Of a stretch of DNA of 64,000 nt, positions 19,684 through 56,040 are shown piece by piece. The first letter of the stretch is position 1, and every line of letters starts with the position of its first letter. The stretch is from Barthelona sp. PCE. Lineage: Eukaryota. A program made the translations under genes and the position numbers. Where the stretch lies: NCBI GenBank assembly GCA_040285745.1, contig JAUFOR010000008.1, positions 1,736,001 to 1,800,000 on the forward strand. The letters run 5' to 3'. Under the pieces are notes generated by a model, which saw only the letters and a list, made by a program, of their open reading frames with translations, was not told where the DNA came from and searched no databases.

Positions 19684-22600
19684 ATGCGACTTTCCGCGAA
19701 CGCACTTGCTACGATAAAGCCTGTCGATGGCGTATGTACTTGGATATTGGTAATTCTATCAGAATGTTAGTGTTGTATTCACAGATGTCTACATTACGTT
19801 GTAATAGAGATTGTTTGTATACAATAAGATTCTGCTGCATACCATACACACACCCCGCACACATGAAACTAACTCCTAGCGCATAAAACTTAACAAAAAG
19901 CAGCTAACATCAGTTCGTTCACTTACAAGCTCAAGCAGGTGTCAATATCTGTATCTGAGAGATAACTGTCTTACTGACTATGATGGACCGTCATTTCCCA
20001 GTCTTAAAATTCTTGATTGTGGTTACAATGATCTTTCAAGTGTCAAATTTCTTCGCAATTTCCCTGTTCTCAAGCAGGTATACCTGAATTCTAACAATAT
20101 TGAAACTCTACGAGGATTCCCTGTGTTAAATCACCTGGAACATCTAAGTTTCTCACAAAATACTGTTGCTTCATTTGAGAACTTGAGTCAGTTACCCAAC
20201 TTGAGGGTCCTGTGCTTTGTGGGCAATAATATTCAAAATTTCCAAGATTTTCCTTACTTTAAAAAGTTAGAAATCATTAGGTGCACTGGTAACCCATTCA
20301 CTAATCATCCCTTATATAAGGAATTCCTCATGTATCTCACCAACTATAAACTGGTGAAGATCAACGGTGAGGAAGTGACGGAGGAATTAAGGGAGAGATC
20401 AAAGCAACTTATTTCTCATAAGCTTGGTGTCTTTTTACGTTTTGGATTTATGCCTGAGGTAACGGATGCCAACATCACAACAAAGCAGCTTGATGATATG
20501 GTTGACACATATGTTAACAAAATCAATGTTGATAACTCCACTGAATATTTTAAGATCACAAACTCTTTCGCTATTGGTGAATTAAAAGAGGGTGAGATCA
20601 TCGAGATCCAGCACGAGTACGAAATTCTTGATCCTGAAGTCCAGAAGGTCGATATGAAGCACGAGTGGTTCTCCTATATTAGCGAGTCTGGTGAGTTTGT
20701 TGAGGTTGACTGCACTGACGCATGTATTACACTCGCATCAAAGTACACCAACCTGTGTCTTCATGGCCGAACTACCTTCTATATTAACAACAAAATTCAC
20801 TGTTCTGCACTCTATTACACTGGTAACATTCTTCCTGCTCAGCCTGACTGTCGCAACGCTGAGATCGTCGGTAGATGTGTCGAGGGAGAAACTATCACCG
20901 TGGCATACGATTACATTGGTGGTGAAGAGGGTGCAACAACCGTCGTGTGGAAGCGCAACGGAACAGGTGTTTATGAGGGTAAGTCATACGTGTGTTGCTT
21001 GGCTGACATCGATCACAATCTGACCGCTGAGATCACCCCCATGCGTAAGGACGGATTAAAGGGATCTCTAATCACTATTAAGACTGATTACGTGGAGGCA
21101 GCAACCCCACGCGTCAGTGATTTATACGTGGATGGTGTCTTTGTCGAGCGTGATATTCTCGAGGCCAAAGGCACATATTTCGGTGGTGTTGAGGGAGGTT
21201 CCAGATTCCAATGGTTCCGTCGTATCGAACCCACTGATAGCAACGAAAAAGTTCGTTTCTTGGAGATCAAGGGTTCAATATCTCGAACCTATGCGATTCA
21301 AACTGATGACTATGGCCACCAACTCGTCTTTCAATACACTCCTATCTCTAATAAGGGGGTTGAAGGCCCTCCATGTTCTGTTATCACGAAACGTATTGGT
21401 GCTGGTAAACCTCTGGTTTCAAGCGCTAGTTTCCACACTGTGCCTCTAGGTGTACTCGAGGAGAACAAAATGATCACCCTCAAGTACTCATACTCTGGAG
21501 GAAAGCAGGGTCCCACGAGAATCAGGTGGTTCCGAACTGTCCGCAAATTCGATAGTAGTGATATCACTGATGACGTACGTCGTGAACTGCAACGTAAGCT
21601 CATTGAGTTCGATGAGGCTTGGGAGCAGATCCCAATGGGTGTTGACGGTCCTGTCGAATATCTCCCCATTTTGCTCGATGTACACCATGTGTTAGGTGTA
21701 GTCATCGAGCCAGTAAGGGTCGATGGTGAGGCAGGTTCACGTTATACATTTGTTTGTAGCAACGTTGTGCGCCCTTGTGCACCTGTTTGCGCTGCGATCA
21801 AGCTGAGCGGTATCCCTAAACAAGGAACTGAGCTCATTGCTGACGTGTCCTATGCAGGTGGTCTGGAGGGAAGAAGTGATCGAGTTTGGTATCGCCGTCT
21901 CCCTGACAGTGAAGAGCTCGAGGAGATAAAGGCAGATTCATATTCTTATCTCCCACTTGTTCACGATCTAGGTTACCTAATTCGTTTCGTATATACACCT
22001 ACACGTGCTGATGGAGAAGTTGGCACCGATGTATTTGTCGAAACTGCTATCCCTGTTGAGTGGGCTGACCCACGCTACTTTGATGTAGAAATCGTCGGTC
22101 AACCTTTGGGTGGTTGCACTGTACAGGCTCAGGCCCAGTACTATGGTGGAATTGAGGGTGCGAGTGAGCGTCAGTGGATCCGTGTTGATAAACATGGAAT
22201 TCACACTATAATTCCATGTGTTGAAGATAATTACACTATCAGCGAGCCGGATCACGAATGCTGTCTTGTGCACCGTATCATCCCCGTTCGTCAAGACGGT
22301 AAGCGCGGTAAGGAGGTTACAAGCGGTGCTTTCGGGCCCTGTATTATTGGTCTTCCCACAATTACTAACGCTGAAATCATTGGTAGTGAGACATACACAG
22401 ATAATTCTAAGCTCGAATTTGTTGCCGACTACTTTGGTGGAGGAACACCAGAGATTACATATACGTGGCGTCGTTGGATGTGGTACGACCGTCTTGTATC
22501 AAATAAGATGGAAAACTACTTTCTCCCTACTCCTGTTGTCTTGCATGAAGGTGTTTCAGTATTGGGCAAGGATGACAACCCAACCTTTGTTCTGCGTAAT

Positions 22601-24649
22601 GAAGACGTCAACCATGTTATTGAGTTTGAGGCAACTGTTAAGCGACTTGAAGACAACACAATGGCTGACCCTATCGTTCTTCGCTTTGGGCCCACGTTTG
22701 ACAACTCACAGATTGTCATCACTGATGCTCAGTTCGACAGCGAACCACTTACGGGCATCCCATTCAAGGTATTCCCTCATGTGCTTGCTGTTGCAAATGA
22801 TCCATCGGATAACTCAAAGACAAGGTACAATTGGAGTCTCCGTGATGGCGCTGATTGGGTATCTGTTCCCAATTCTAACGCTCCAGAATTTACACCGTCA
22901 CATGAAGACATTGGTAAGTACGTACGCTGTCAGATCACTGCATTCACAGAAACAGGAGTACAGAGCTCGATCAAGACTGTGATGGCTGAACAAGCAATTG
23001 CTTGGGGTAAGCCTGCAGTCACCGATATTGTCATTAAACAGTCAGTTGATCGCAAGTGCCTTGTCACCCAGTACGAGTTCCACGGTCCCAAGGAGGGTAC
23101 CACCGATATTGTATGGTTCAGAGTTGGTTCCGATGGTACACGTACACAAGTTGCTGATGAATACGTTCGCGTTAACTCACGTGGTATTATTGACAGTCAT
23201 GTCATCAACATCTCTTCAGATGACGTTGATACGAGTTTCTTCTGTGAAATTACGCCTGTCACCGCAGATGGAGTCGTTGGCACGACTTTAAAGTCAGCCT
23301 CAACCCCAGTTATAACATCACCGCTTCTTAACGGTGAAGAGGTTCATCCCGAACTCCCCCTTGATACCGAGCACATTGGTGCTTGTGTTCTAGAAATCAA
23401 GCTCAGTGTGGCTCAAGAGGGGGAGATCTTGACGTGTCTGATCAAGGTTTCGGATGATGCCGACCCCATGCAAACAAAGTATGTTTGGCACCGTATCACA
23501 CCCGAAGGTAAGGTTGAGTTGTCCAGAGAGGCTTCATATGTGTGTTGTTATCAAGACATCCGTAGTGTTATTGAGCTCTGTGTTACTTCAGTTGACTATG
23601 AAGGAAAGGACGGACAGTGTATCACAGTTGTCTCAGAACCTGTTCAGCCTGCAATTCCTAGCCTGGTTTCATTGAAGATCAAGGGTGGTGAGTACAACGA
23701 CGATAAGCTTTACATTATTCCTGAGTACTTTGGAGGATTACAGGGCAAGTCAAAGGTTGCAATCTACCGCATCACAGATGATGGTAACGTTCCTGTACTT
23801 CGATTCAAGAAGTCATCCACAAAGGCGCAAGAACTGTATGATAAGAAAGATTATTCTGCACCAGAGGAAACGCAGTTTATGACTTACGTTCCTACTGTTA
23901 ACGATATTTACCATCAGTTATTGGTGAAGTACACCCCCATCAGCATCACTGGCGAAGAGGGTAGACCTATTAGCGTTTCCACTGAGAAGCTTGTGATGAT
24001 CAACCCTGAATGGAACACCTCCATCGGTCAGATGATCCAAGACTCCACTACGGAGTTCAACGTCAAGGAAGTGATGGAGAACGAGGTCGAGATTGATCGT
24101 GTCCTTCACGTCAACGTCGAGAAGTTTAAGATCAGGGAGCCTGCTGGTAAAACTGTTCTTAAACATGTCTGGGGAACAGGAACTCTTATGGAACTGGATA
24201 TTGAGCAGCAACAGATTGTGATTCATCTTAACGAGGACTTTGTTGACGGAAAGCAAAAGAGTAACTACCGTCGTACTTCTGTTAACGGCACTGTTCAATG
24301 TATTCTGAAGTCTGCTGATAACAACATTGCATTCATTGCATGCGTTCTAAGATCGTTTAATCTTATTGCACAGCGTGTCAATCCTTTCACAGGAACTGAG
24401 GAAGGCTTTGATGAGCTTAATGTTGCAGGAAATAACAGAAAGATGCTGCGCAAGCTTTCCCGCGCAACACTTTCAACGCCTAGTTTGAGAAGTGCTTCAA
24501 GCCTGAGCAGTCTGTTGGAGTTGGGTAGACCACCAAGCATGTCTAAGCTTCCCACTGTTAATGATCTTGAACAGAATCAGAAACAAGAGGATTCTGATGT
24601 ACTCGAGGAAGAGTTTGATCTTCCCTTACCTCCAAAAACTGAGGAATAA
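19684..24649 (+). CDS. AIR9: AIR9-like microtubule-associated protein (N-terminal LRRs plus repeated Ig-like A9 domains); join(19684..19731,19880..24649), 1605 aa
   Basis: LRRs (YLYLRDN, LKILDCGYN, LKQVYLNSN, LEHLSFSQN) followed by repeats of Y.GG.EG.S...W.R and P.R.DG..G. The 5' part is recovered by splicing. Confidence 0.88.
19732..19879 (+). other. Spliceosomal intron, 148 nt, phase 0
   Basis: Reads GTATGT...ACTAACTCCTAG. It joins the 16-codon exon MRLSANALATIKPVDG in frame to RIKLNKKQL..., which otherwise has no in-frame ATG after the TAG. Confidence 0.9.
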
Positions 24650-24655
24650 AGCTGT

Positions 24656-25234
24656 ATGTTTAATAATTTTTTTGTTATCCTGTTAATGAACCAATTCAAG
24701 GTAGACGAAGCTGTACTCACTGAAAGGGGCACGAGGCGGCGCAACGAGACTTATAGTAGGTTGCTTGTCCGGGGATTCAGAAAAGAAGCATTTGTTTTGG
24801 TTGAAGATATTGATCTCATAAATTTTAGACGATTTATGTACAAGATGCGAAACCCAATGGGCAAAACCTTACTATTTCAGAGGATGAATCTTGTGTTTAA
24901 AGCACTGAAACGACTTAAGCGATTTGATATGGAACATTTCACACAAGTTTTCCAAACATCTATGCTCAAATCTGACATGTGTGGGTCATTTAATGCGTTT
25001 TCACTTTATGGAGAACTCATGAAACGTTATCTAAACCTTGTAGAGGATCTTAACCTTGCATGTACACGTGCATTTCCAATTTTAGAGGGATCTATGCGTC
25101 AAACATATCACATGACGTTCTGTCTAACATCTCTTAGTTTTATTTCCTTAATTTTTGAAAAATCTATTGCACTAGAAAAAAAAGCAACTGAAAAAAAAAA
25201 TTCTTTCAATCAATTGCTTCGTTTTGTTTCCTAA
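24656..25234 (+). CDS. RMP1/NEPRO (DUF4477)-like putative RNase MRP subunit (start may be ATG 24686)
   Basis: FMYKMRN...FQRM..V.KALKRL and the later YHMTFCLT.LS.IS segment resemble the RMP1/NEPRO N-terminal domain. Confidence 0.55.
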   Translation: MFNNFFVILLMNQFKVDEAVLTERGTRRRNETYSRLLVRGFRKEAFVLVEDIDLINFRRFMYKMRNPMGKTLLFQRMNLVFKALKRLKRFDMEHFTQVFQTSMLKSDMCGSFNAFSLYGELMKRYLNLVEDLNLACTRAFPILEGSMRQTYHMTFCLTSLSFISLIFEKSIALEKKATEKKNSFNQLLRFVS

Positions 25235-26544
25235 CTGTCTAAAACTCCGCTATCAAAACGCTTTTTAATATGTTTAACGAGAGCTGGAATAATTTGTTGC
25301 TGCTCGCGTGTTACCAAATGTTGACTTGGTCTAGCCTCATATACGGTGCCAACGTCTTCTTGCCCTGTCATCTGCAATTCTCTTGATACAAAATTCTCAT
25401 CTGTATTGGACAAGAACTTGTGCAGGGCATCCTTTGCTGTTAACAAAAATAATGGTGTAGTACTTTCTAAACGTACAAATTTTCGTGTTATATCAGAGTA
25501 AAGCTGAATGCGAGCAGATGGTGCAACCTTTGCAATGATGAATGGAAACCGAATATGCCTTGTCTGAGGTTCAACAACTGATACCTGCTCTGGTTTCTTT
25601 CTTTTCTTAACTGAAAGCAAATGTTTGTTCTCCATCTGCGTCGCACGTCGTTTCTTTGACAGTTTTCCACCTACTTCAGCTATCCTTTTTGCATGTAAGA
25701 CATCAGCGTTAAGAACATGTGCTGTTTGCCGCACGTAATCTGTAAATAATGTCCTCCTTCTCTCCCTCGCTCTGAGAATACGTTCTTCCAATAAAAGAAG
25801 TTTTTCAGCCGTACTGCAAGGATATCCATCAAAAACTACAATCTTTCCCACTGAGCGCACAACTTTCAGCGCCTTCAGAACATTAACTACGTCATACACA
25901 CGCCGCCTAATATTCTCGTCCTTTCCACCGCTTGATCTTCCGGAAGAAACCATTAAATCTGCTATTCTTTGCTGTGTGCTAACTTGTTGAAACGCAAGAG
26001 CGTCGCATATAGGTTTGATCATATGCTTTACGTTTGTTGTTGCAAAAGAAACCATTGGGACCTTTGTCTCCGTTGCTGTAGCATGCTGTTCAACCTCTGG
26101 TTCTATTACGGATGAATGCGTTACCATTTTCGTTTTGTTTGTGATTGATTTCTTCGGGGTCACACCGAATTGGATGGACGTCGGTACGTTGACGCTCAGG
26201 GGCGTAAAGACAAGCCTTGGTGGTTCTCTTGCTGTGGAAGATGTTACATCGAATGATGGATAATAGTGTGGTTTTGGTTTTGTCGGGTTGGTGAGCAGCT
26301 CACTGGAGTTGATCCACTCGTGGCTGAACACTGGCGACACACCAGCACGGAAAAAATCCTTCAAACCCCTTGAAATCGATTTATCAAACGAATTTAAAAG
26401 AGGAGTTATGCTGTCAGCATCTTCTGTGGAGGCATTCTTTTCACCTTCTACATTACGCTTTTCGGGTTCAAATTCTTCTTTAACTTGTTCCTCGTTTTGC
26501 TGCTCGTTTTGCACTTCTTCTTTCTTTTCTGTGTCAGTCCCCAT
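25231..26544 (-). CDS. E2F/DP-family (DP-like) transcription factor
   Basis: Winged-helix signature ENIRRRVYDVVNVLKAL and a downstream IRFPFII motif, as in DP proteins. The first ATG is at 26544. Confidence 0.8.
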   Translation of the reverse strand: MGTDTEKKEEVQNEQQNEEQVKEEFEPEKRNVEGEKNASTEDADSITPLLNSFDKSISRGLKDFFRAGVSPVFSHEWINSSELLTNPTKPKPHYYPSFDVTSSTAREPPRLVFTPLSVNVPTSIQFGVTPKKSITNKTKMVTHSSVIEPEVEQHATATETKVPMVSFATTNVKHMIKPICDALAFQQVSTQQRIADLMVSSGRSSGGKDENIRRRVYDVVNVLKALKVVRSVGKIVVFDGYPCSTAEKLLLLEERILRARERRRTLFTDYVRQTAHVLNADVLHAKRIAEVGGKLSKKRRATQMENKHLLSVKKRKKPEQVSVVEPQTRHIRFPFIIAKVAPSARIQLYSDITRKFVRLESTTPLFLLTAKDALHKFLSNTDENFVSRELQMTGQEDVGTVYEARPSQHLVTREQQQIIPALVKHIKKRFDSGVLDS

Positions 26545-26886: not shown

Positions 26887-27948
26887 TTAGTGCATCACCT
26901 TAACTCGATATTTATGAGAAGGTGTACAAACACGCTCCAAAACCCATAATTTCTTGTTCATTTTAGCAACACAAGATTCGCACGCGTTGTAAAGGCATAC
27001 AACATCGCCATCGCGGATATAATCAGCCATCTTACCACCCTTTGCTTTCCAAAGACGAACAGGTGTTGCCTTCCTAGTTGTAAGACACATTGGTCCACTA
27101 CAGTGTTTAAGCTTCTTGAGTGGTACGTATGGCTTGAGCATACCCTCAGATGTTTCAACGGATCTTCCATCAGACATCACCAGAAGATTCTTCTCACCAT
27201 GGTGAATTCTTCTAATCTCTTCAGTAGCAAAGTACAAACGTTCTTTTGTATGACCTTTGTACGTGATACTGCGGGTCTTGCCCTTGAATAAATGCATACG
27301 GTCAATTGGATTCAAATCCTCCAATTGGAAAACATAGTTTGAGACAACAGGCGGTTTTGGGAGTTTCATTTTTTTTGACAAGAAGCAGCCGGTCTTGACA
27401 CAAAAGTAACCATCGATTTTGTGATGATCTTTATAACCTAGATTACCAAATTTAGCACTAGCGCTGACCCGTTCCTTTTCCGGGCAAGAACACTTCTTAC
27501 TGGGTTTTTTTGGCATGTCATCCTCACTTACACCCGAAGAAAGGCCGGGAATGTCAATCACATCAGCTACTTGAGACGTGCGTTTAACATCATCAACAAG
27601 GGTAACATGTTTACCGGCAAGATACTTCTTTCTTCTTACAATACGGGAAAGGCTGGCAACATCTGCATGCTGAAAGTCTCGCATACAATCCCATTCACTC
27701 TTTTGAGCATCATCATGAATACATTCTTTTAATGCAATTTCAAGAATATCATGGCGAAAATCAGGGTATGTACACTGCTTTTTGCAATGCGTGAGCGCCT
27801 TATCAGCCGAATAGCTGACGTATTTCGATTCTGCACCACGAGAACACATTTTTATACATGTGGTGAAGTCTATTTCAGAAACTGCAAGTTCCTGCGCATA
27901 AGCGAGCCACAGTGGGCTGGCTATAAGCAACAATAAAAAGAATTGCAT
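26887..27948 (-). CDS. Putative secreted Cys/Lys-rich protein
   Basis: Signal-peptide-like N-terminus MQFFLLLLIASPLWLAYA; many Cys pairs; AATAAA overlaps the stop. Confidence 0.7.
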   Translation of the reverse strand: MQFFLLLLIASPLWLAYAQELAVSEIDFTTCIKMCSRGAESKYVSYSADKALTHCKKQCTYPDFRHDILEIALKECIHDDAQKSEWDCMRDFQHADVASLSRIVRRKKYLAGKHVTLVDDVKRTSQVADVIDIPGLSSGVSEDDMPKKPSKKCSCPEKERVSASAKFGNLGYKDHHKIDGYFCVKTGCFLSKKMKLPKPPVVSNYVFQLEDLNPIDRMHLFKGKTRSITYKGHTKERLYFATEEIRRIHHGEKNLLVMSDGRSVETSEGMLKPYVPLKKLKHCSGPMCLTTRKATPVRLWKAKGGKMADYIRDGDVVCLYNACESCVAKMNKKLWVLERVCTPSHKYRVKVMH

Positions 27949-28006
27949 TGAAAAGGGATGATTTCTAGGAATTCAAGAATTCCAAGACTTCTTTCGGGGG
28001 GCTAAA

Positions 28007-28089
28007 GGGTCAATGGTATGAGGAGACGGATCCCAACAGTAAACATTGTTAAAGTAAAAGCGTAAGTGAATCCAAATTGGTATAGTTGA
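28007..28089 (+). repeat. Left inverted-repeat core (83 bp)
   Basis: GGGTCAATGGTATGAGGAGACGG...CCAAATTGGTATAGTTGA; reverse complement of 32081-32163 except position 28017 vs 32153. Confidence 0.97.
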
Positions 28090-28155
28090 GAATATTCATT
28101 CATAAACTAATCCCTTATCGCTCATAAAGAAAACGCTTCTTTCGATTTATTGCTA

Positions 28156-31100
28156 ATGCCGGTTTTTAAATCTTTCAATGTGAGTATTCCAATGGACAAA
28201 ATCAGACTATGCAATGAAATAGAAGAAAATGATGCAAGTTATCACATTCGTGTTCGATTGTACACCAATGGGATTCTTGCAGATGGTAAAATTGGAAATT
28301 ACAATGAAGTAGGCTGCTTAGAAATACAAAACTGTGTTCTACCAAACGCTCGTGAATTTAATGCTTATAAGTACGCGATATTAACTCACGAAGATCTTTT
28401 AGCTACTTACAACAACATTAAGGGGCCTAAACAGAATCCTGTATCACGCAATGTAGTTTCAAAAGCCTCTTGTCATGTAATTGGCTTGTGTATCTTCACA
28501 GGTAAACACTATCTTCGCAGGATATCCAGCAAAGAACATATCAAGATCATCTGGAGTGCTATGGTGAACAATTGGATAAAACCTGAGTTTGATAAAGATG
28601 CTTTTATCGAAATGATTCGAATCCATAATCCCAAAATTACAGATGCTAGACTGGCAGATATGTTGGATAATGTGTATACTACAACTCCATCAAAACGCAA
28701 GTTTATAAATGACGCAAGTTTAAACTCTGTTACTGGTATTACTTCCAAAGAAGGTCAAGGAAATATTGACTATGACGAGCGCACGTGTGAGTGGACTTGT
28801 ACAGACATTGGAATAATCCAGGATTCAATATTTCCACTTCGTTTTCAACAATTAACAGAGCAAAATCACCAAATCACTAAGATGAAGGTATCACTTGCTA
28901 GGGTTAACGATGCTAGGGGCTTTGCTTTGCCATTTGTATTTAATGCTATGGATAAAAGTTTGAAAAGCATTAAATCTGAATACGGTGCAGCTTCTGAGAG
29001 GGCTTTCAGGGATTACACAACATATTACGGTAAGGTTGTGCACCCTTACATTCTGGAAACCATTTTTAACTCTGCTTATGTTCAAGCAGCAAACAATTCA
29101 GAAAACGTAACTCTTTTTATGGAATTTGATCTGTCAAGCGATGGATACAGTGCTGCACTTATTATGTTGAAGGTACCAACCGATCTGGAACTTGTTTGGG
29201 TCGAGCATCCATTTTTGGAGAGCTCTACGGAAATGTACACAAAAAAGCATTTAATAATCACACTAGAGCAATATTTGGATTCTTTAAAAGGTAAGTTTAT
29301 CATCTTTGATACATTTACAACCGAGTTCACTGTTTCCCACGCAACTGAAGTTGTCATTAATCCTCTTGATTACCCAGATTTCACTGTGCGTAATTTTGAA
29401 GTACCTGAAACCGACAAGGGTGCGAAATACAAGCGTGCTCAGGATCTGTGCGAACAGTTTTTGTCTCGGCTTAAAAAATACAAAATCATCCAGTCATATT
29501 CAATCATCGAGAGGAAAAACAGGGATCGCTGGTGCTTAGAAGATGTTATTATTGACATGGGTGATTCTGAAGTTAAGATTGTTGTTGGAACTGATAATGG
29601 CACGCCAGAACAGCTCGCCTTTCAAAAGATATGTGATGCATGCTCGTCAATATCACGAGTTCCTTGTATTTGTCATGTTTTGAATAAGATTATGGCAAAA
29701 ACCAGTGGGTTTGAGTTCTTTCCTTGTTCTCTTCAGCATCAATCCTACAGTCCTCCTTATTTTGATAGTTTTAATTCGTTGAGAGTCTCCAATGAAACCG
29801 TCACTATGGATATCATCGATCAAGTTTCACAAAATCCATTTGTTGAAGCGTTGTCTAAGAAGCTAGATTTATCAAATTTATTCACCAACCGTACCATTTC
29901 ACGTTCTGCTGCTGCTCGACTTAACAGCGTTGTTTCTCTCCATGAAACTCATCCAATCTTTGCACTTTCTGAACCTGCAGCAGAGAATGAGAGTGTTACA
30001 GATGATATTTCTGGTGCAACTATCAACAATTTAACAGAAGAATGGATCGAGTCATTTGTTCATTCTGACAGTGATGTGGTTGAAGGTGGTTTGATTTCTG
30101 ACGATAAGCTCATGTTTACCTTTGCATATACATCATTTCATGAATGTCAACACCTTGAAAACTTGTTAAGTCAGCGCAATGCTTGCCTGTTAGGCGTTGA
30201 TTTGACCTTAAGTAACTCTCTTTCAAATGATGCCTATCGTTTCAATGTACTTGAGCATTATACTGAATTCATTGATCATCTTGCCATGATTTCTTTAGAG
30301 AAATATGCAAAAATGTTGGATGATCAGCAGAAATCTCTCGCCAATTTTTCAAAGATACAGACGCTGTTAACAGTTGATACTATGCGTGTGTTTTATAAAT
30401 ACCATGTAGTCTGGTGTTTTGTAACGGAAAGATCCATATCTCTTTCGAATGTTCGTTGGGATACACTGGAATGGATTTATGATGTATTGTGTGGTGGACT
30501 GTACATGGACATCCCAAAGATACTATTTTTACCTGAGGGAACAGAAACAATTCCTGATGATTTTGCAATAACAATGTCTCATTTTGAGATCACTAAAAAG
30601 TTTCTTAATCTGAAGTACGATGAAGTTAAGGATTTGGCGATTAAGCGGATGTTAAAGAGCAATAATACTGTTTGTGACGAGGATCATTATCGGCATTTTC
30701 TTTCTCCTTTTTATGAGGCCATGAAGGATGGGAATAAGCAGCCTCATGAATTTTCTCTGGGCCCTGATATGTGGGTATTGGCAAGGAATTATTTTTCTAC
30801 ATATTCTCGTATGATCTTTATTCAACGTATGAGCAGTAAGAATGATTTTTCAGTTTTACAATCATATTTCCAAGTCTCCATTCTTTTACTTGAATTGCGA
30901 AAGTGGCGATCAGATTTAAGGATAGAAAATGAAACAAGCCTTGCTGCAATATACCATGATGGTCTTTTTGAGTATGTTCGTCATTATTTTTGCAAATTCC
31001 TCATCATGCCCGAACCTTTAGTGGCTTTTCTTCTCTCAGATTTAAGCACTGTTGAGCTCCAGGATCATAATAAGGAGGTTAAAGATATCACAAATGATAA

Positions 31101-31902
31101 ACCCCGAAAGAGTTGTTTGAAGGAAGAATTATATGAACAGTATGTTGATGCAAAGATACCCAATATGAACAGAGGAGGTTTAGTTGAGGTTACAGACAGG
31201 GAACTTGTAAGACTAAAAGGTATGATGGTTTTTTCATTTTTACCCACCAAGTTCAAGCGCTGTGCAAGTGATTATCCCGCATTACATCTTATTAGTGATC
31301 ATCTTATTATTGATATGACAATAGAATTTAATGATCCTACGTTGTATAGAGGGTTAGTGGGGTATATAATTTCGATTCTTTGTACCAATTACTATTTAGA
31401 CTTTTCACCGTCCAATGAAGATCGCAAGAAGGTCGTAATGCGCTATACACCAGAAGTAGAACCCCCAACAAATGTGAGACCACCATCAGCAACGTTCTTT
31501 TTCAGTCCTAGACGCAGATCCAATCGTACAGAGAGTGAACTATCTCCAAGTGCCCAAAGTGTGCGTGAGCCCCCTTTAAGTGTTCAAAGGGTGGCCGATG
31601 AGTTCGATTTCAATGATACAGGTATTAGAGAAAGAGATGTTCGTGCAGCACTTGTTCATGGCCACACCCACGAATCTGTGAAGGGTTTACCCGGTTTCCG
31701 AGCTATAATTAGACAACACAGCAGTGCATCTGCCAGCAATTCTGGAGTTGAGCGTGGATTTTCTATGTTAAAAAGACTGCATTCCAAGAATCAAACCAAA
31801 TTATTAGCTCGTATACGTTTTAATTGGTTTTTATTAAGTGAAGCTTCTGCAGTCCCAAGGATTACGTATGATAAACTGAAAGAAATAGTGAAAACTATCT
31901 AA
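28156..31902 (+). CDS. Oversized hAT-superfamily DDE transposase (start ATG 28156 or 28192)
   Basis: Motifs in hAT order (numbering from 28150): FMEFD327 (tentative D1), VVGTD482NG, C506ICH509VLN, R769W770 and SASNSGVE1201RGFS. Confidence 0.82.
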   Translation: MPVFKSFNVSIPMDKIRLCNEIEENDASYHIRVRLYTNGILADGKIGNYNEVGCLEIQNCVLPNAREFNAYKYAILTHEDLLATYNNIKGPKQNPVSRNVVSKASCHVIGLCIFTGKHYLRRISSKEHIKIIWSAMVNNWIKPEFDKDAFIEMIRIHNPKITDARLADMLDNVYTTTPSKRKFINDASLNSVTGITSKEGQGNIDYDERTCEWTCTDIGIIQDSIFPLRFQQLTEQNHQITKMKVSLARVNDARGFALPFVFNAMDKSLKSIKSEYGAASERAFRDYTTYYGKVVHPYILETIFNSAYVQAANNSENVTLFMEFDLSSDGYSAALIMLKVPTDLELVWVEHPFLESSTEMYTKKHLIITLEQYLDSLKGKFIIFDTFTTEFTVSHATEVVINPLDYPDFTVRNFEVPETDKGAKYKRAQDLCEQFLSRLKKYKIIQSYSIIERKNRDRWCLEDVIIDMGDSEVKIVVGTDNGTPEQLAFQKICDACSSISRVPCICHVLNKIMAKTSGFEFFPCSLQHQSYSPPYFDSFNSLRVSNETVTMDIIDQVSQNPFVEALSKKLDLSNLFTNRTISRSAAARLNSVVSLHETHPIFALSEPAAENESVTDDISGATINNLTEEWIESFVHSDSDVVEGGLISDDKLMFTFAYTSFHECQHLENLLSQRNACLLGVDLTLSNSLSNDAYRFNVLEHYTEFIDHLAMISLEKYAKMLDDQQKSLANFSKIQTLLTVDTMRVFYKYHVVWCFVTERSISLSNVRWDTLEWIYDVLCGGLYMDIPKILFLPEGTETIPDDFAITMSHFEITKKFLNLKYDEVKDLAIKRMLKSNNTVCDEDHYRHFLSPFYEAMKDGNKQPHEFSLGPDMWVLARNYFSTYSRMIFIQRMSSKNDFSVLQSYFQVSILLLELRKWRSDLRIENETSLAAIYHDGLFEYVRHYFCKFLIMPEPLVAFLLSDLSTVELQDHNKEVKDITNDKPRKSCLKEELYEQYVDAKIPNMNRGGLVEVTDRELVRLKGMMVFSFLPTKFKRCASDYPALHLISDHLIIDMTIEFNDPTLYRGLVGYIISILCTNYYLDFSPSNEDRKKVVMRYTPEVEPPTNVRPPSATFFFSPRRRSNRTESELSPSAQSVREPPLSVQRVADEFDFNDTGIRERDVRAALVHGHTHESVKGLPGFRAIIRQHSSASASNSGVERGFSMLKRLHSKNQTKLLARIRFNWFLLSEASAVPRITYDKLKEIVKTI

Positions 31903-32080
31903 ATTCAATTTTTTCATTTTTATGGTGGAGAAACATTTTTGTGGATTTATTGTGGGGTATCTGGTTCACAAGGTACATGAAAGCTTTCACATGTATTTCT
32001 GAGCACTCTAATATTGCGATATGTTTGGAAATTTGTACTGGAAAATTCCCCTAATAAAAATATGGAACAACTGTAGAAAA

Positions 32081-32163
32081 TCAACTATACCAATTTGGAT
32101 TCACTTACGCTTTTACTTTAACAATGTTTACTGTTGGGATCCGTCTCCTCATGCCATTGACCC
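32081..32163 (-). repeat. Right inverted-repeat core (83 bp)
   Basis: TCAACTATACCAATTTGG...CTCCTCATGCCATTGACCC; reverse complement of 28007-28089. Confidence 0.97.
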
Positions 32164-32232
32164 ATTGACCCCACGAAAGTAAACTTGGTATTCTTGAATC
32201 TCTAATGATTTCTTATATACATCCTTTTCAAT

Positions 32233-33222
32233 ATGCTGCATGATTTTGTGCAGTCAGATGCTTTGAAGCGTGTGTGTAGGGGGCTTCTGGGAAAGTTACC
32301 ATCCGTCTCAATGTTACCAATCAGAAGCTTGATTAGCTATGCTGCTCTTTCACCGCTAGCACTATTTAACAATGTTGATTTCGAAGTTGAGGATAGAGTA
32401 GAGCTGATTGATGCTATTTACGATCTTCATTCTCAATGTTCAAGCGGTTTCTTTGCTTCAGAGATCCAGTCGGGGATTGAATCATTTTCTTATGGAGATA
32501 TATCCATGACGTTCACAACAATATCCGTGCTCATCATGCTGGGTGACGATCTGCAGCGAGTTAATCGTGAAAGCGTGTGTCGTTTACTGCGAGAGTGTTA
32601 CAATGATGCAACTGGAAGTTTCTTACTTTCTAGAGAGGGAGAAATGGACGTGCGCGCAACATTCAGCGCAATTGCAACGTGCAAATTATTGAACATTAAT
32701 CTTAAGGAGAAAAACGAAATTCAAGCTGGTGTGTTAAAATGTCAAATGTGTGACGGTGGATTTGGACAGTCTCCCGGCCTTCCAAGTCACGGGGGATCAA
32801 CATTCTGTGCTATTTCGTCTCTTCTTTTGCTCCAAGAAATGGGAGTAATGACGCAACAATCTGTTTTTAAAAAATGTGCTAGATGGTGCCTCAGAAGACA
32901 CAACAGGGGGTTCCATGGACGCGAGGGCAAGGATGATGATACGTGTTACGGATTCTGGATTGGTGGTACACTTCGGAATTTAGGATACTTGAAGTATGTT
33001 AACAAAGATCGTTGGCTTACGCATTTGGGTAACACTGCGAGGTATAAACAAGGTGCTTTCGCTAAGTTTGAAGGTACAAAGATAGGAGATCCCATTCACC
33101 TCTGCTTTGGATGTTATGCTTATGCTTATGTCACTGAAAGTGCCAATGTTGACTCTATTATTGGTGTTCCTCAGCACTGCGTTGATGCTGTCTACGCTTT
33201 CGAACCCATGGAATGCAAATAG
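32233..33222 (+). CDS. PGGT1B: Protein geranylgeranyltransferase type I beta subunit
   Basis: Prenyltransferase repeats: LIMLGDDLQRVNR, EMDVR, DGGFGQSPGLPSHGGSTFCA, GFHGREGKDDDTCYGFWIGGTL and DPIH. Confidence 0.85.
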   Translation: MLHDFVQSDALKRVCRGLLGKLPSVSMLPIRSLISYAALSPLALFNNVDFEVEDRVELIDAIYDLHSQCSSGFFASEIQSGIESFSYGDISMTFTTISVLIMLGDDLQRVNRESVCRLLRECYNDATGSFLLSREGEMDVRATFSAIATCKLLNINLKEKNEIQAGVLKCQMCDGGFGQSPGLPSHGGSTFCAISSLLLLQEMGVMTQQSVFKKCARWCLRRHNRGFHGREGKDDDTCYGFWIGGTLRNLGYLKYVNKDRWLTHLGNTARYKQGAFAKFEGTKIGDPIHLCFGCYAYAYVTESANVDSIIGVPQHCVDAVYAFEPMECK

Positions 33223-54504: not shown

Positions 54505-55728
54505 TTACTGCCAAACCTGAGTTTGACCCATGTGAGCGTAAACACGCATGGCACCAAGAACGACAAAAGCAAAGAGCTCGGAGGTGGGGAGCTGATTAGC
54601 CTGATCGAGGAAGAACTTGAGGTTGTAACTGTAGACGGGAGAATCTGAGGGGTTCTCAGCAAAGAAGATGGACTCAAGCTTGGTGGGGCAAGGAGGGCGG
54701 GGAGCCTGCTCCATATCAGACTTCTCAAGAAGACGAGAGTAGATGATACCAAACAAAGCCATAATCTCACGGTTCTGATATCCGTTGGCCTTCTCAAGGT
54801 GACGTTGGGGTTCCTTTAAGGTGACGAGACCTTGACCACATTCCTGAACGAGCAATTGCTCAACCTGGTTCATGGCACGGAAGCCACGGAGGTTACCCTT
54901 GACGGGCATACGCTGACCACGACCGATTCTCTCGGAGAGTAAGACGCAGATAGCAACGAGGGCGCGCTTATCAAGCTGGTTCTGTTGGAACATTTGGAGG
55001 TACTGCTGGAACTGAGGGAAGATGGCGGGTTGGGGACCGTTCTCACGCATGACAGTTTGAGCAAAGAACTCTTGAGGGAGACGATAACCGGGTTGCCATT
55101 GGTTGAACTGCTGAGGAGCAGGCTGGAGCTGAGTGGGGTTTCCGAGGAAAGAGCACTGAGCGTTGACGAACTGTTGAGGAGGACGGAAAGAGATAGGGGC
55201 AGGCTGACCTTGAGGAGCAAAGAAAGGGTTGTTTGAAGGAGCAAACATATTCTGCTGAGGTTGGGGCTGCATACCAGGCATACCCATACCGGGTTGACCC
55301 ATACCAGGCTGACCCATACCCATACCGGGCTGACCCATACCAGGCTGCATTCCGGGCATACCCATACCGGGTTGACCCATGCCAGGCTGACCCATACCCA
55401 TACCGGGCTGGCCCATACCAGGCTGCATACCGGGCATACCCATGCCAGGCTGGCCCATACCCATACCGGGTTGACCCATACCCATACCAGGCTGACCCAT
55501 ACCCATACCAGGCTGACCCATACCCATACCGGGCTGGCCCATACCAGGCTGCATTCCGGGCATACCCATACCAGGCTGACCCATGCCAGGCTGGCCCATA
55601 CCCATACCGGGTTGACCCATGCCAGGCTGGCCAAAACCTTGGTTCATTTGGGGTTGACCAAAACCTTGGTTCATAGGCTGACCGTATTGTTGGGGCTGCT
55701 GACCGTACTGATTGGGTTGGTTAAACAT
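54505..55728 (-). CDS. Gln/Gly/Pro/Met-rich low-complexity protein with folded C-terminal domain
   Basis: Probable start ATG 55728 (MFNQPNQ); GQPGM repeats followed by a non-repetitive ~150-aa domain; strong C/T-ending codon bias. Confidence 0.85.
   Translation of the reverse strand: MFNQPNQYGQQPQQYGQPMNQGFGQPQMNQGFGQPGMGQPGMGMGQPGMGQPGMGMPGMQPGMGQPGMGMGQPGMGMGQPGMGMGQPGMGMGQPGMGMPGMQPGMGQPGMGMGQPGMGQPGMGMPGMQPGMGQPGMGMGQPGMGQPGMGMPGMQPQPQQNMFAPSNNPFFAPQGQPAPISFRPPQQFVNAQCSFLGNPTQLQPAPQQFNQWQPGYRLPQEFFAQTVMRENGPQPAIFPQFQQYLQMFQQNQLDKRALVAICVLLSERIGRGQRMPVKGNLRGFRAMNQVEQLLVQECGQGLVTLKEPQRHLEKANGYQNREIMALFGIIYSRLLEKSDMEQAPRPPCPTKLESIFFAENPSDSPVYSYNLKFFLDQANQLPTSELFAFVVLGAMRVYAHMGQTQVWQ
55270..55630 (-). 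repeat. Coding tandem repeat of GQPGM(GM)/MPGMQPGM units
   Basis: Repeated 15- and 21-nt units such as ATGGGTCAGCCTGGTATGGGT on the minus strand. Confidence 0.95.
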
Positions 55729-56040
55729 TGTTCTGTTATATATATTGGAATATAAAAGGAAAAGCAAGCTAAGTTGTTCTACTAATTTCTCATGCGCCAC
55801 ATGAAGCATAAACGTGCATATCTGTGCATTTACAAAGCAACATTTTCCCAAAAGGTCATAATTTGAGGTTTTAAACACAAACTAGATCCTCATTCTACAC
55901 AAGCTTTTGCTTCATCACATTGGTGATGATATGTATTTCCAAAACTCTTCCACAAACAATAAAATCATTTAAAAGCTAATAATAGCACTGCTACAAAATA
56001 TAAAAAAAAATGGTTTTTACAATAAATTATTCAGTAATAA

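Follow-up and report, generated by a model that had tools for sequence, protein, structure and literature searches.

We examined a 64,000-nt window of the Barthelona sp. PCE genome (GenBank assembly GCA_040285745.1, contig JAUFOR010000008.1, positions 1,736,001 to 1,800,000 of the forward strand; positions below count from the first base of the window), in which a cassette with inverted repeats and a transposase-like gene lies between two outward-facing host genes. Our data indicate, with a probability that we place near 0.78, that this cassette is an autonomous-looking 4239-bp cut-and-paste transposon, most probably a divergent member of the hAT superfamily, inserted into a divergent spacer of ~37 bp between the two genes. 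It is an ordinary transposon insertion, by a very divergent family member, at an unusually tight site. An earlier note on this DNA had read the cassette as a possible domesticated or invertible promoter module whose repeats form the upstream DNA of both neighbours; that apparent oddity disappears once the locus is resolved into a normal transposon, a normal target duplication, and two copies of a host motif.

Arms, target duplication and native flanks

The element spans 27966–32204 and is bounded by two arms of 124 nt (Table 1), which form terminal inverted repeats (TIRs) that align without gaps at 113 of 124 positions (91% in the repeat search) and enclose an interior of 3991 nt. Counted from the tip, the mismatches fall at positions 4, 5, 16, 22, 23, 25, 32, 37, 38, 41, and 52. 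No other pair of inverted repeats of at least 30 nt is present in the 64 kb, and a 33-nt core of the arms occurs twice in the window against an expectation of 0 (100 shuffles). TAG opens both arms (left TAGGAATTC; right, read as the reverse complement, TAGAGATTC), and a perfect 8-bp direct repeat, ATGATTTC, abuts both tips; pairs of 8-mers drawn randomly from the window were identical only 78 times in 2,000,000. This repeat is the target-site duplication (TSD) whose absence the earlier note had reported. An intact TSD together with inverted arms that share TAG tips is the anatomy of normal cut-and-paste insertion: the transposon was inserted normally, with a clean 8-base target duplication. 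A ninth base, T, is also shared and makes a 9-bp reading possible; the 8-bp reading gives symmetric arm tips. Searches with blastn and tblastn found no second copy, solo end, or miniature inverted-repeat transposable element derived from it elsewhere in the window.

The alignments given in the earlier note (28007–28089 against 32081–32163 at 82/83, and 27971–28006 against 32164–32199 at 28/36 without gaps) are both borne out by the mismatch positions, whereas its placement of the arm ends is not. The start codons lie beyond the arms, 17 bp from the tip on the left and 28 bp on the right, and these stretches between arm tip and ATG are native flank, made up of the TSD and a common motif, where the note had seen no upstream DNA besides repeats. 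Its outer block, ATTGAAAAGGGATG (27947–27960), does recur reverse-complemented, with one G fewer, at 32220–32232, and a global alignment joins the arms to this block only through a 10-nt gap. Removal of the element and one TSD copy leaves a 37-bp divergent spacer between the two ATGs.

The identity of the outer block became apparent from the upstream regions of other genes in the window. For 30 non-overlapping, ATG-started open reading frames (ORFs) of at least 150 aa, we compared the 60 nt preceding the ATG with the window as a whole. The motif CCYTTWY is present in sense orientation within these 60 nt in 12 of the 30 ORFs (1.03 expected) and in antisense orientation in none of the same segments (0/30); once the transposase ORF and both neighbors of the element are left out, it is still found in 9 of 27. 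The most enriched upstream hexamer is CCTTTT (9 of 30 ORFs, 0.64 expected). Instances of CCYTTWY lie at positions −8 to −52, often as CATCCYTTTYCA and several times within the longer CATCCYTTT. Since the enrichment is strand-specific, the recurring block is each gene's own copy of the upstream motif, and it looks palindromic because two divergent genes each carry a copy facing away from the other. The outermost ATTGAAAAGG(G)ATG block, previously counted as part of a repeat arm, is thus better regarded as the host motif.

We infer that CCYTTWY is a core-promoter motif of Barthelona genes. In Trichomonas vaginalis, the m5 element, with its 'CCTTT' core, is described as a core-promoter element that determines the start site from a position no more than 20 nt ahead of the ATG (PMC7370421). 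CCYTTWY is similar in containing CCTTT, in its strand specificity, and in its closeness to the ATG; it belongs to a distant metamonad, and the comparison is one of sequence resemblance, drawn from 30 ORFs of one window. By this analogy, CCYTTWY may mark a core-promoter type common to metamonads.

These features suggest how the present arrangement could have come about. The transposase would bind the ends, excise the element, and insert it with an 8-bp stagger, and repair of the staggered cut would leave ATGATTTC at both sides. The bidirectional promoter gap would have offered an accessible, nucleosome-free target of the kind favored by hAT elements such as Hermes, whose insertions are reported to be biased toward nucleosome-free promoter regions (PMC7534453); for the Barthelona element, such a preference is suggested by the insertion site. 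Both neighbors would still be expressed from their own CCYTTWY copies, which lie outside the element at 8–10 nt from each ATG. The short promoters of a compact genome may tolerate an insertion 17 and 28 bp upstream because the core promoter would lie within ~10 nt of each ATG.

The putative transposase and its probable superfamily

The interior of the element holds a single uninterrupted ORF of 1248 aa, and the CCCTTAT inside the element and ahead of this ORF (Table 1) is likely the promoter of the element itself, judging by its sequence and position. A word-indexed protein search returned four relatives, all hypothetical proteins of Barthelona sp. PCE. Two of them, of 1247 and 1227 aa, are 88% and 85% identical to the ORF; a third, of 734 aa, is 89% identical with 57% of the query covered, and the fourth, of 986 aa, is 39% identical. 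When 1.84 billion representatives were searched exhaustively, no more than 8 proteins reached E ≤ 0.001. Barthelona sp. PCE has at least 8 named relatives of the protein, among them full-length, truncated, and internally deleted forms; the lengths recorded for their longest contigs fall into four values. In PCE1_004087 (P0005), the N-terminal ~136 residues are fused to the C-terminal ~130, an internal-deletion derivative comparable to Ds-del of Ac (PMC3260210), while PCE1_002132 (P0012) is a C-terminal fragment and PCE1_000604 and PCE1_004525 are distant family members. A profile of the C-terminal domain, run against longer proteins, matched family members alone (4 hits). Such a mixture of complete, truncated, and internally deleted copies in one family is the demography of a transposon, not that of a domesticated gene. 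The family thus has several copies, decayed ones included (as judged from their proteins), and the TIRs and TSD of the present copy are intact, as in an active or recently active family; domestication, as proposed in the earlier note, is therefore unlikely.

Identity to the full-length relatives P0001 and P0002 is uneven along the ORF. It is mostly 50–60 of 60 residues per block, falling to 37–51 in three of the four blocks across residues 49–288 (51 of 60 in the remaining one) and to 37–51 in both blocks of residues ~1009–1128. This pattern would fit subfamily mosaics or recombination between copies. Two further matches were set aside: a protein from a Thiothrix metagenome-assembled genome (L001; 31% identity over 85 residues), found in a scan of bacterial and archaeal genomes with a single-protein query, was treated as chance, and a Pfam match of the ORF to MFE-2 (E 0.068) was at chance level. 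The published Barthelona genome (10.2 Mb) was repeat-masked before gene prediction, and neither the main text of that report (searched by term) nor the supplementary files searched contain a description of Barthelona transposons (PMC11316075). A literature search for hAT transposons in metamonads found nothing related.

Transposases of the hAT superfamily have an RNase H-like DDE core that is split by an all-helical insertion with a conserved RW. Candidate positions conserved across the relatives of the 1248-aa protein include D329 (in DGYS), D480 (in G-T-D480-N-G), C504 and H507, R767-W768, and E1199 (in V-E1199-x-x-F-S), the last four of which would match the second catalytic D, the CxxH, the RW, and the catalytic E of hAT transposases. 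The G-T-D-x-G-x-P-E and P-C-x-x-H motifs are invariant in 8 of 8 aligned relatives, V-R-W is conserved among the relatives, and V-E-x-x-F-S is invariant in all five C-terminal sequences. In 3 of 12 family members, DUF659, presumably a hAT-associated domain, gave sub-threshold matches located exactly on the D-CxxH block (best E 0.0047). Among language-model neighbors in the ESM Atlas, hAT-type families made up 9 of the 10 best named clusters for the whole protein (scores 0.80–0.84), and Dimer_Tnp_hAT (PF05699) made up 27 of 30 for residues 1100–1248 (scores 0.90–0.91). The nearest named clusters were of the Buster, ZBED5, FAM200, and GTF2IRD2 type (PF27073, PF14291, PF05699), a likeness in language-model features that had no alignment support; these families were unmatched in the Pfam hmmscan, with no PF05699 match at E ≤ 10.

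The element further resembles hAT elements such as Hermes, hobo, Ac, and Tol2 in combining one transposase gene with an 8-bp TSD, the length of ATGATTTC, and the candidate residues conserved among its relatives (D, D, CxxH, RW, and an E-x-x-F-S near the C-terminus) agree with the hAT consensus. TIRs of hAT elements are usually ~10–25 bp long and have the tip consensus YARNG, which the right tip (TAGAG) fits fully and the left tip (TAGGA) at four of five positions. Hermes, which generates 8-bp TSDs, is described as having imperfect TIRs, asymmetric subterminal repeats, and functionally asymmetric ends (PMC10368747), and the Barthelona element is similar in its imperfect TIRs, its differing left and right ends, and its repeated units near one tip. 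Because of the TSD length, the conserved D/D/CxxH/RW/E positions, the weak DUF659 matches, and the language-model neighbors, we think it most probable that the element belongs to the hAT superfamily, as a very divergent member, an assignment made from sequence features without formal significance. The hAT label of the earlier note accordingly stands as the best-fitting superfamily for a transposase cassette bounded by inverted repeats, though without confirmation from Pfam.

An N-terminal BED zinc finger is common, though not universal, in hAT transposases. Several results count against the interpretation that we favor. No significant Pfam family was found for the 1248-aa ORF, even at E ≤ 10, whether it was searched whole or in four pieces, and no zf-BED finger was found by Pfam in residues 1–500 at the same threshold. 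The DUF659 scores (16–17 bits) lie well below the 34.7-bit cut-off, and Atlas scores of the size obtained are leads only. With a family profile, no PDB sequence was matched at E ≤ 10. AlphaFold2 models were poor, with a mean predicted local distance difference test score of 44.2 for residues 49–1248 (12 sequences) and 59.2 for residues 250–530 (8 sequences); Foldseek searches of the PDB with both gave 0 matches at E ≤ 0.001 and unrelated top hits, and the models were not used. The protein is also about twice the usual length of a hAT transposase, and the TIRs are some five to ten times the usual hAT length. Their tips are less alike than their inner part, the reverse of the usual pattern. Finally, at 37 bp the inferred spacer falls below the range of the other 7 divergent spacers in the window (78–722 bp), the shortest of which, at 78 bp, has the same layout.

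Alternative readings of the arms and the element

The sharp step in identity along the arms, already pointed out in the earlier note, is statistically real: the outer 41 nt (27966–28006 in the left arm) match at 31 positions with 10 mismatches and the inner 83 nt at 82 positions with 1 mismatch (Fisher p = 5.7e-5). Asymmetric tips are usual among hAT elements. The change from 76% to 99% most likely has one of two causes: tips that differ between left and right throughout the family, or one tract of gene conversion, which over the inner 83 nt could have come from the other arm or from another copy of the element. Near the step, the right arm in reverse-complement reading carries a tandem GGGTCAATG GGGTCAATG (32146–32163), of which the left arm (27998–28015) has one intact copy; the outer unit of the left arm is GGGGCTAAA and so gives rise to a CCTTTAG oriented toward the left gene, ~60 nt upstream. 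The tandem units may be subterminal binding repeats or a coincidence.

The same step invites two other accounts of the arms. In one, advanced in the earlier note, the element is fixed and co-opted, with arms that act as outward promoters or 5' untranslated regions and an inner 83 bp that is homogenized, whether through gene conversion or because the 4-kb interior inverts. The position of the insertion, so close to the start codons of two intact ORFs, one for a prenyltransferase with a likely housekeeping role, agrees with this account, as do the identity step itself, which one conversion tract ending at 41/42 would yield, and the left-arm CCTTTAG, a near-miss to the motif. We nevertheless consider co-option quite unlikely: the TSD is intact and both tips read TAG, the family has many copies including decayed members, each neighbor has its native CCYTTWY outside the element, and no strict CCYTTWY faces outward within either arm. 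An invertible switch fares no better, since the sole motif in the element (28112–28118) lies ~4 kb from the right gene; inversion would change nothing for the neighbors because the recombining arms are identical and would show them the same sequence. The other account supposes that a young element bounded by perfect 83-bp TIRs landed in the middle of an older, already decayed palindromic relative, of which the outer 41 nt would be what is left; this would explain why identity changes so abruptly at one arm position. It is very improbable: at the 41/42 boundary of the inner 83 bp, no TSD is present (0–3 of 8 bases matching at nine offsets). Moreover, the inner arms begin with GGGTCAATG and not with a TAG/CAG-type tip, both outer pieces would need to be in register and of the same length, exactly 41 nt, and the perfect TSD belongs to the outer tips.

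A different question is whether the transposon belongs to hAT at all. Mutator-like elements (MULEs) have TIRs of at least 100 bp, a DDE transposase with a CxxH-type motif, and TSDs that are usually 9–11 bp (about 8–10 is also given). The Barthelona element resembles them in its long TIRs and its putative DDE transposase with a CxxH-type motif, and a cut-and-paste transposon outside hAT, Mutator-like or from an undescribed superfamily with a similar D-D-CxxH-E layout, would accord with the lack of a significant hAT model in Pfam, the lack of a structural match, TIRs atypical of hAT, and a duplication that can be read as 9 bp. The element differs from MULEs in its 8-bp duplication (9 bp counting the shared T) and in a C-terminal domain that resembles the hAT dimerization domain. 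The Atlas neighbors, both C-terminal and whole-protein, point to hAT, the sole Pfam signal is the weak DUF659 match (taken as hAT-associated), and hmmscan found no MULE family in any of 12 family members, and no other transposase model, at E ≤ 10; an origin outside hAT thus seems unlikely. That an assembly error created a false palindromic junction would have to be considered for the published assembly, which is based on nanopore reads (PMC11316075), but we find this extremely improbable: the anatomy is that of an exact insertion, an error of this kind would not generate an 8-bp TSD, and the intact 1248-aa ORF is 85–89% identical to separate annotated genes.

With a divergent hAT insertion as the preferred explanation, three wider implications arise, each of which goes beyond what one window can prove. 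There would be a hAT-like family too divergent for Pfam in a lineage whose closest named genome is reported to be the smallest among free-living eukaryotes (PMC11316075); that two genes are intact with an insertion 17 and 28 bp ahead of them hints that very short promoters suffice; and the resemblance between CCYTTWY and m5 would suggest an old core-promoter type common to metamonads. A more far-reaching proposal, which we regard as unlikely, would join these points: promoters complete within ~17–28 bp of the ATG and built on an m5-like initiator common with parabasalids, a fixed and harmless insertion, a family for which nucleosome-free bidirectional gaps serve as safe havens within a 10-Mb genome, and an inner 83 bp kept identical by conversion or inversion while the tips drift.

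Neighboring genes and other features of the window

Both ATGs that the earlier note had named as start codons of the neighbors open ORFs of the lengths given in Table 1. The left ORF has a hydrophobic N-terminus that resembles a signal peptide (judged by eye). For the right ORF, the earlier label of GGTase-I beta holds: in addition to its PF00432 match, the closest solved structures in the PDB are GGTase-I beta subunits (E 2.7e-38, versus 3.8e-21 for type 2).

Table 1 Positions of the element's parts, its flanking genes, and the host upstream motif.
Feature	Position	Strand	Basis
Left host gene, 353-aa ORF, no Pfam family	26887–27948	−	ORF list
Left gene's own motif CCCTTTTC, a CCYTTWY instance, 8–9 nt before the ATG, native flank	27950–27957	−	
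Left target-site duplication ATGATTTC	27958–27965		Identical to 32205–32212
Left terminal inverted repeat, 124 nt, starts TAGGAATTC	27966–28089	+	Repeat search and alignment
CCCTTAT, 44 nt before the transposase ATG, inside the element, outside the TIR	28112–28118	+	Motif list
Putative hAT-like transposase, uninterrupted 1248-aa ORF	28156–31902	+	ORF list, relatives, conserved positions
Right terminal inverted repeat, 124 nt, reverse complement starts TAGAGATTC	32081–32204	−	Repeat search and alignment
Right target-site duplication ATGATTTC	32205–32212		Adjoins the right arm tip
Right gene's own motif CCTTTTC, 10 nt before the ATG, native flank	32223–32229	+	
Right host gene, 329-aa protein prenyltransferase beta subunit	32233–33222	+	PF00432, E 2e-57
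ATGs preceded by CCYTTWY	1424, 12730, 20330, 24656, 26544(−), 27948(−), 28156, 32233, 47847(−), 53011(−), 60130(−), 60311		

The window as a whole is highly compact, with 30 ORFs of at least 150 aa covering 87% of it and several same-strand or convergent neighbors only 2–60 bp apart. Scans for tRNA genes and Rfam families found none in the 64 kb. Proteins of the AIR9 A9 family occur in plants and some excavate protists, and an ORF of 1439 aa at 20330–24649 contains seven AIR9 A9 immunoglobulin-like domains (PF23197, E 1e-93). A 192-aa ORF on the plus strand (24656–25234) begins 7 nt past the stop of this AIR9-like ORF, with CCCTTAC at −33, and overlaps the 3' end of an E2F/DP-like gene on the minus strand (25231–26544) by 4 nt; this 192-aa ORF may be spurious. 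A degenerate tandem array at 55219–55629 lies inside the minus-strand ORF 54505–55809, with spacings of 15, 21, 27, and 63 nt and 11 overlapping copies of a 129-nt reference. Its period is a multiple of 3, and the array probably encodes a repetitive, low-complexity protein segment.

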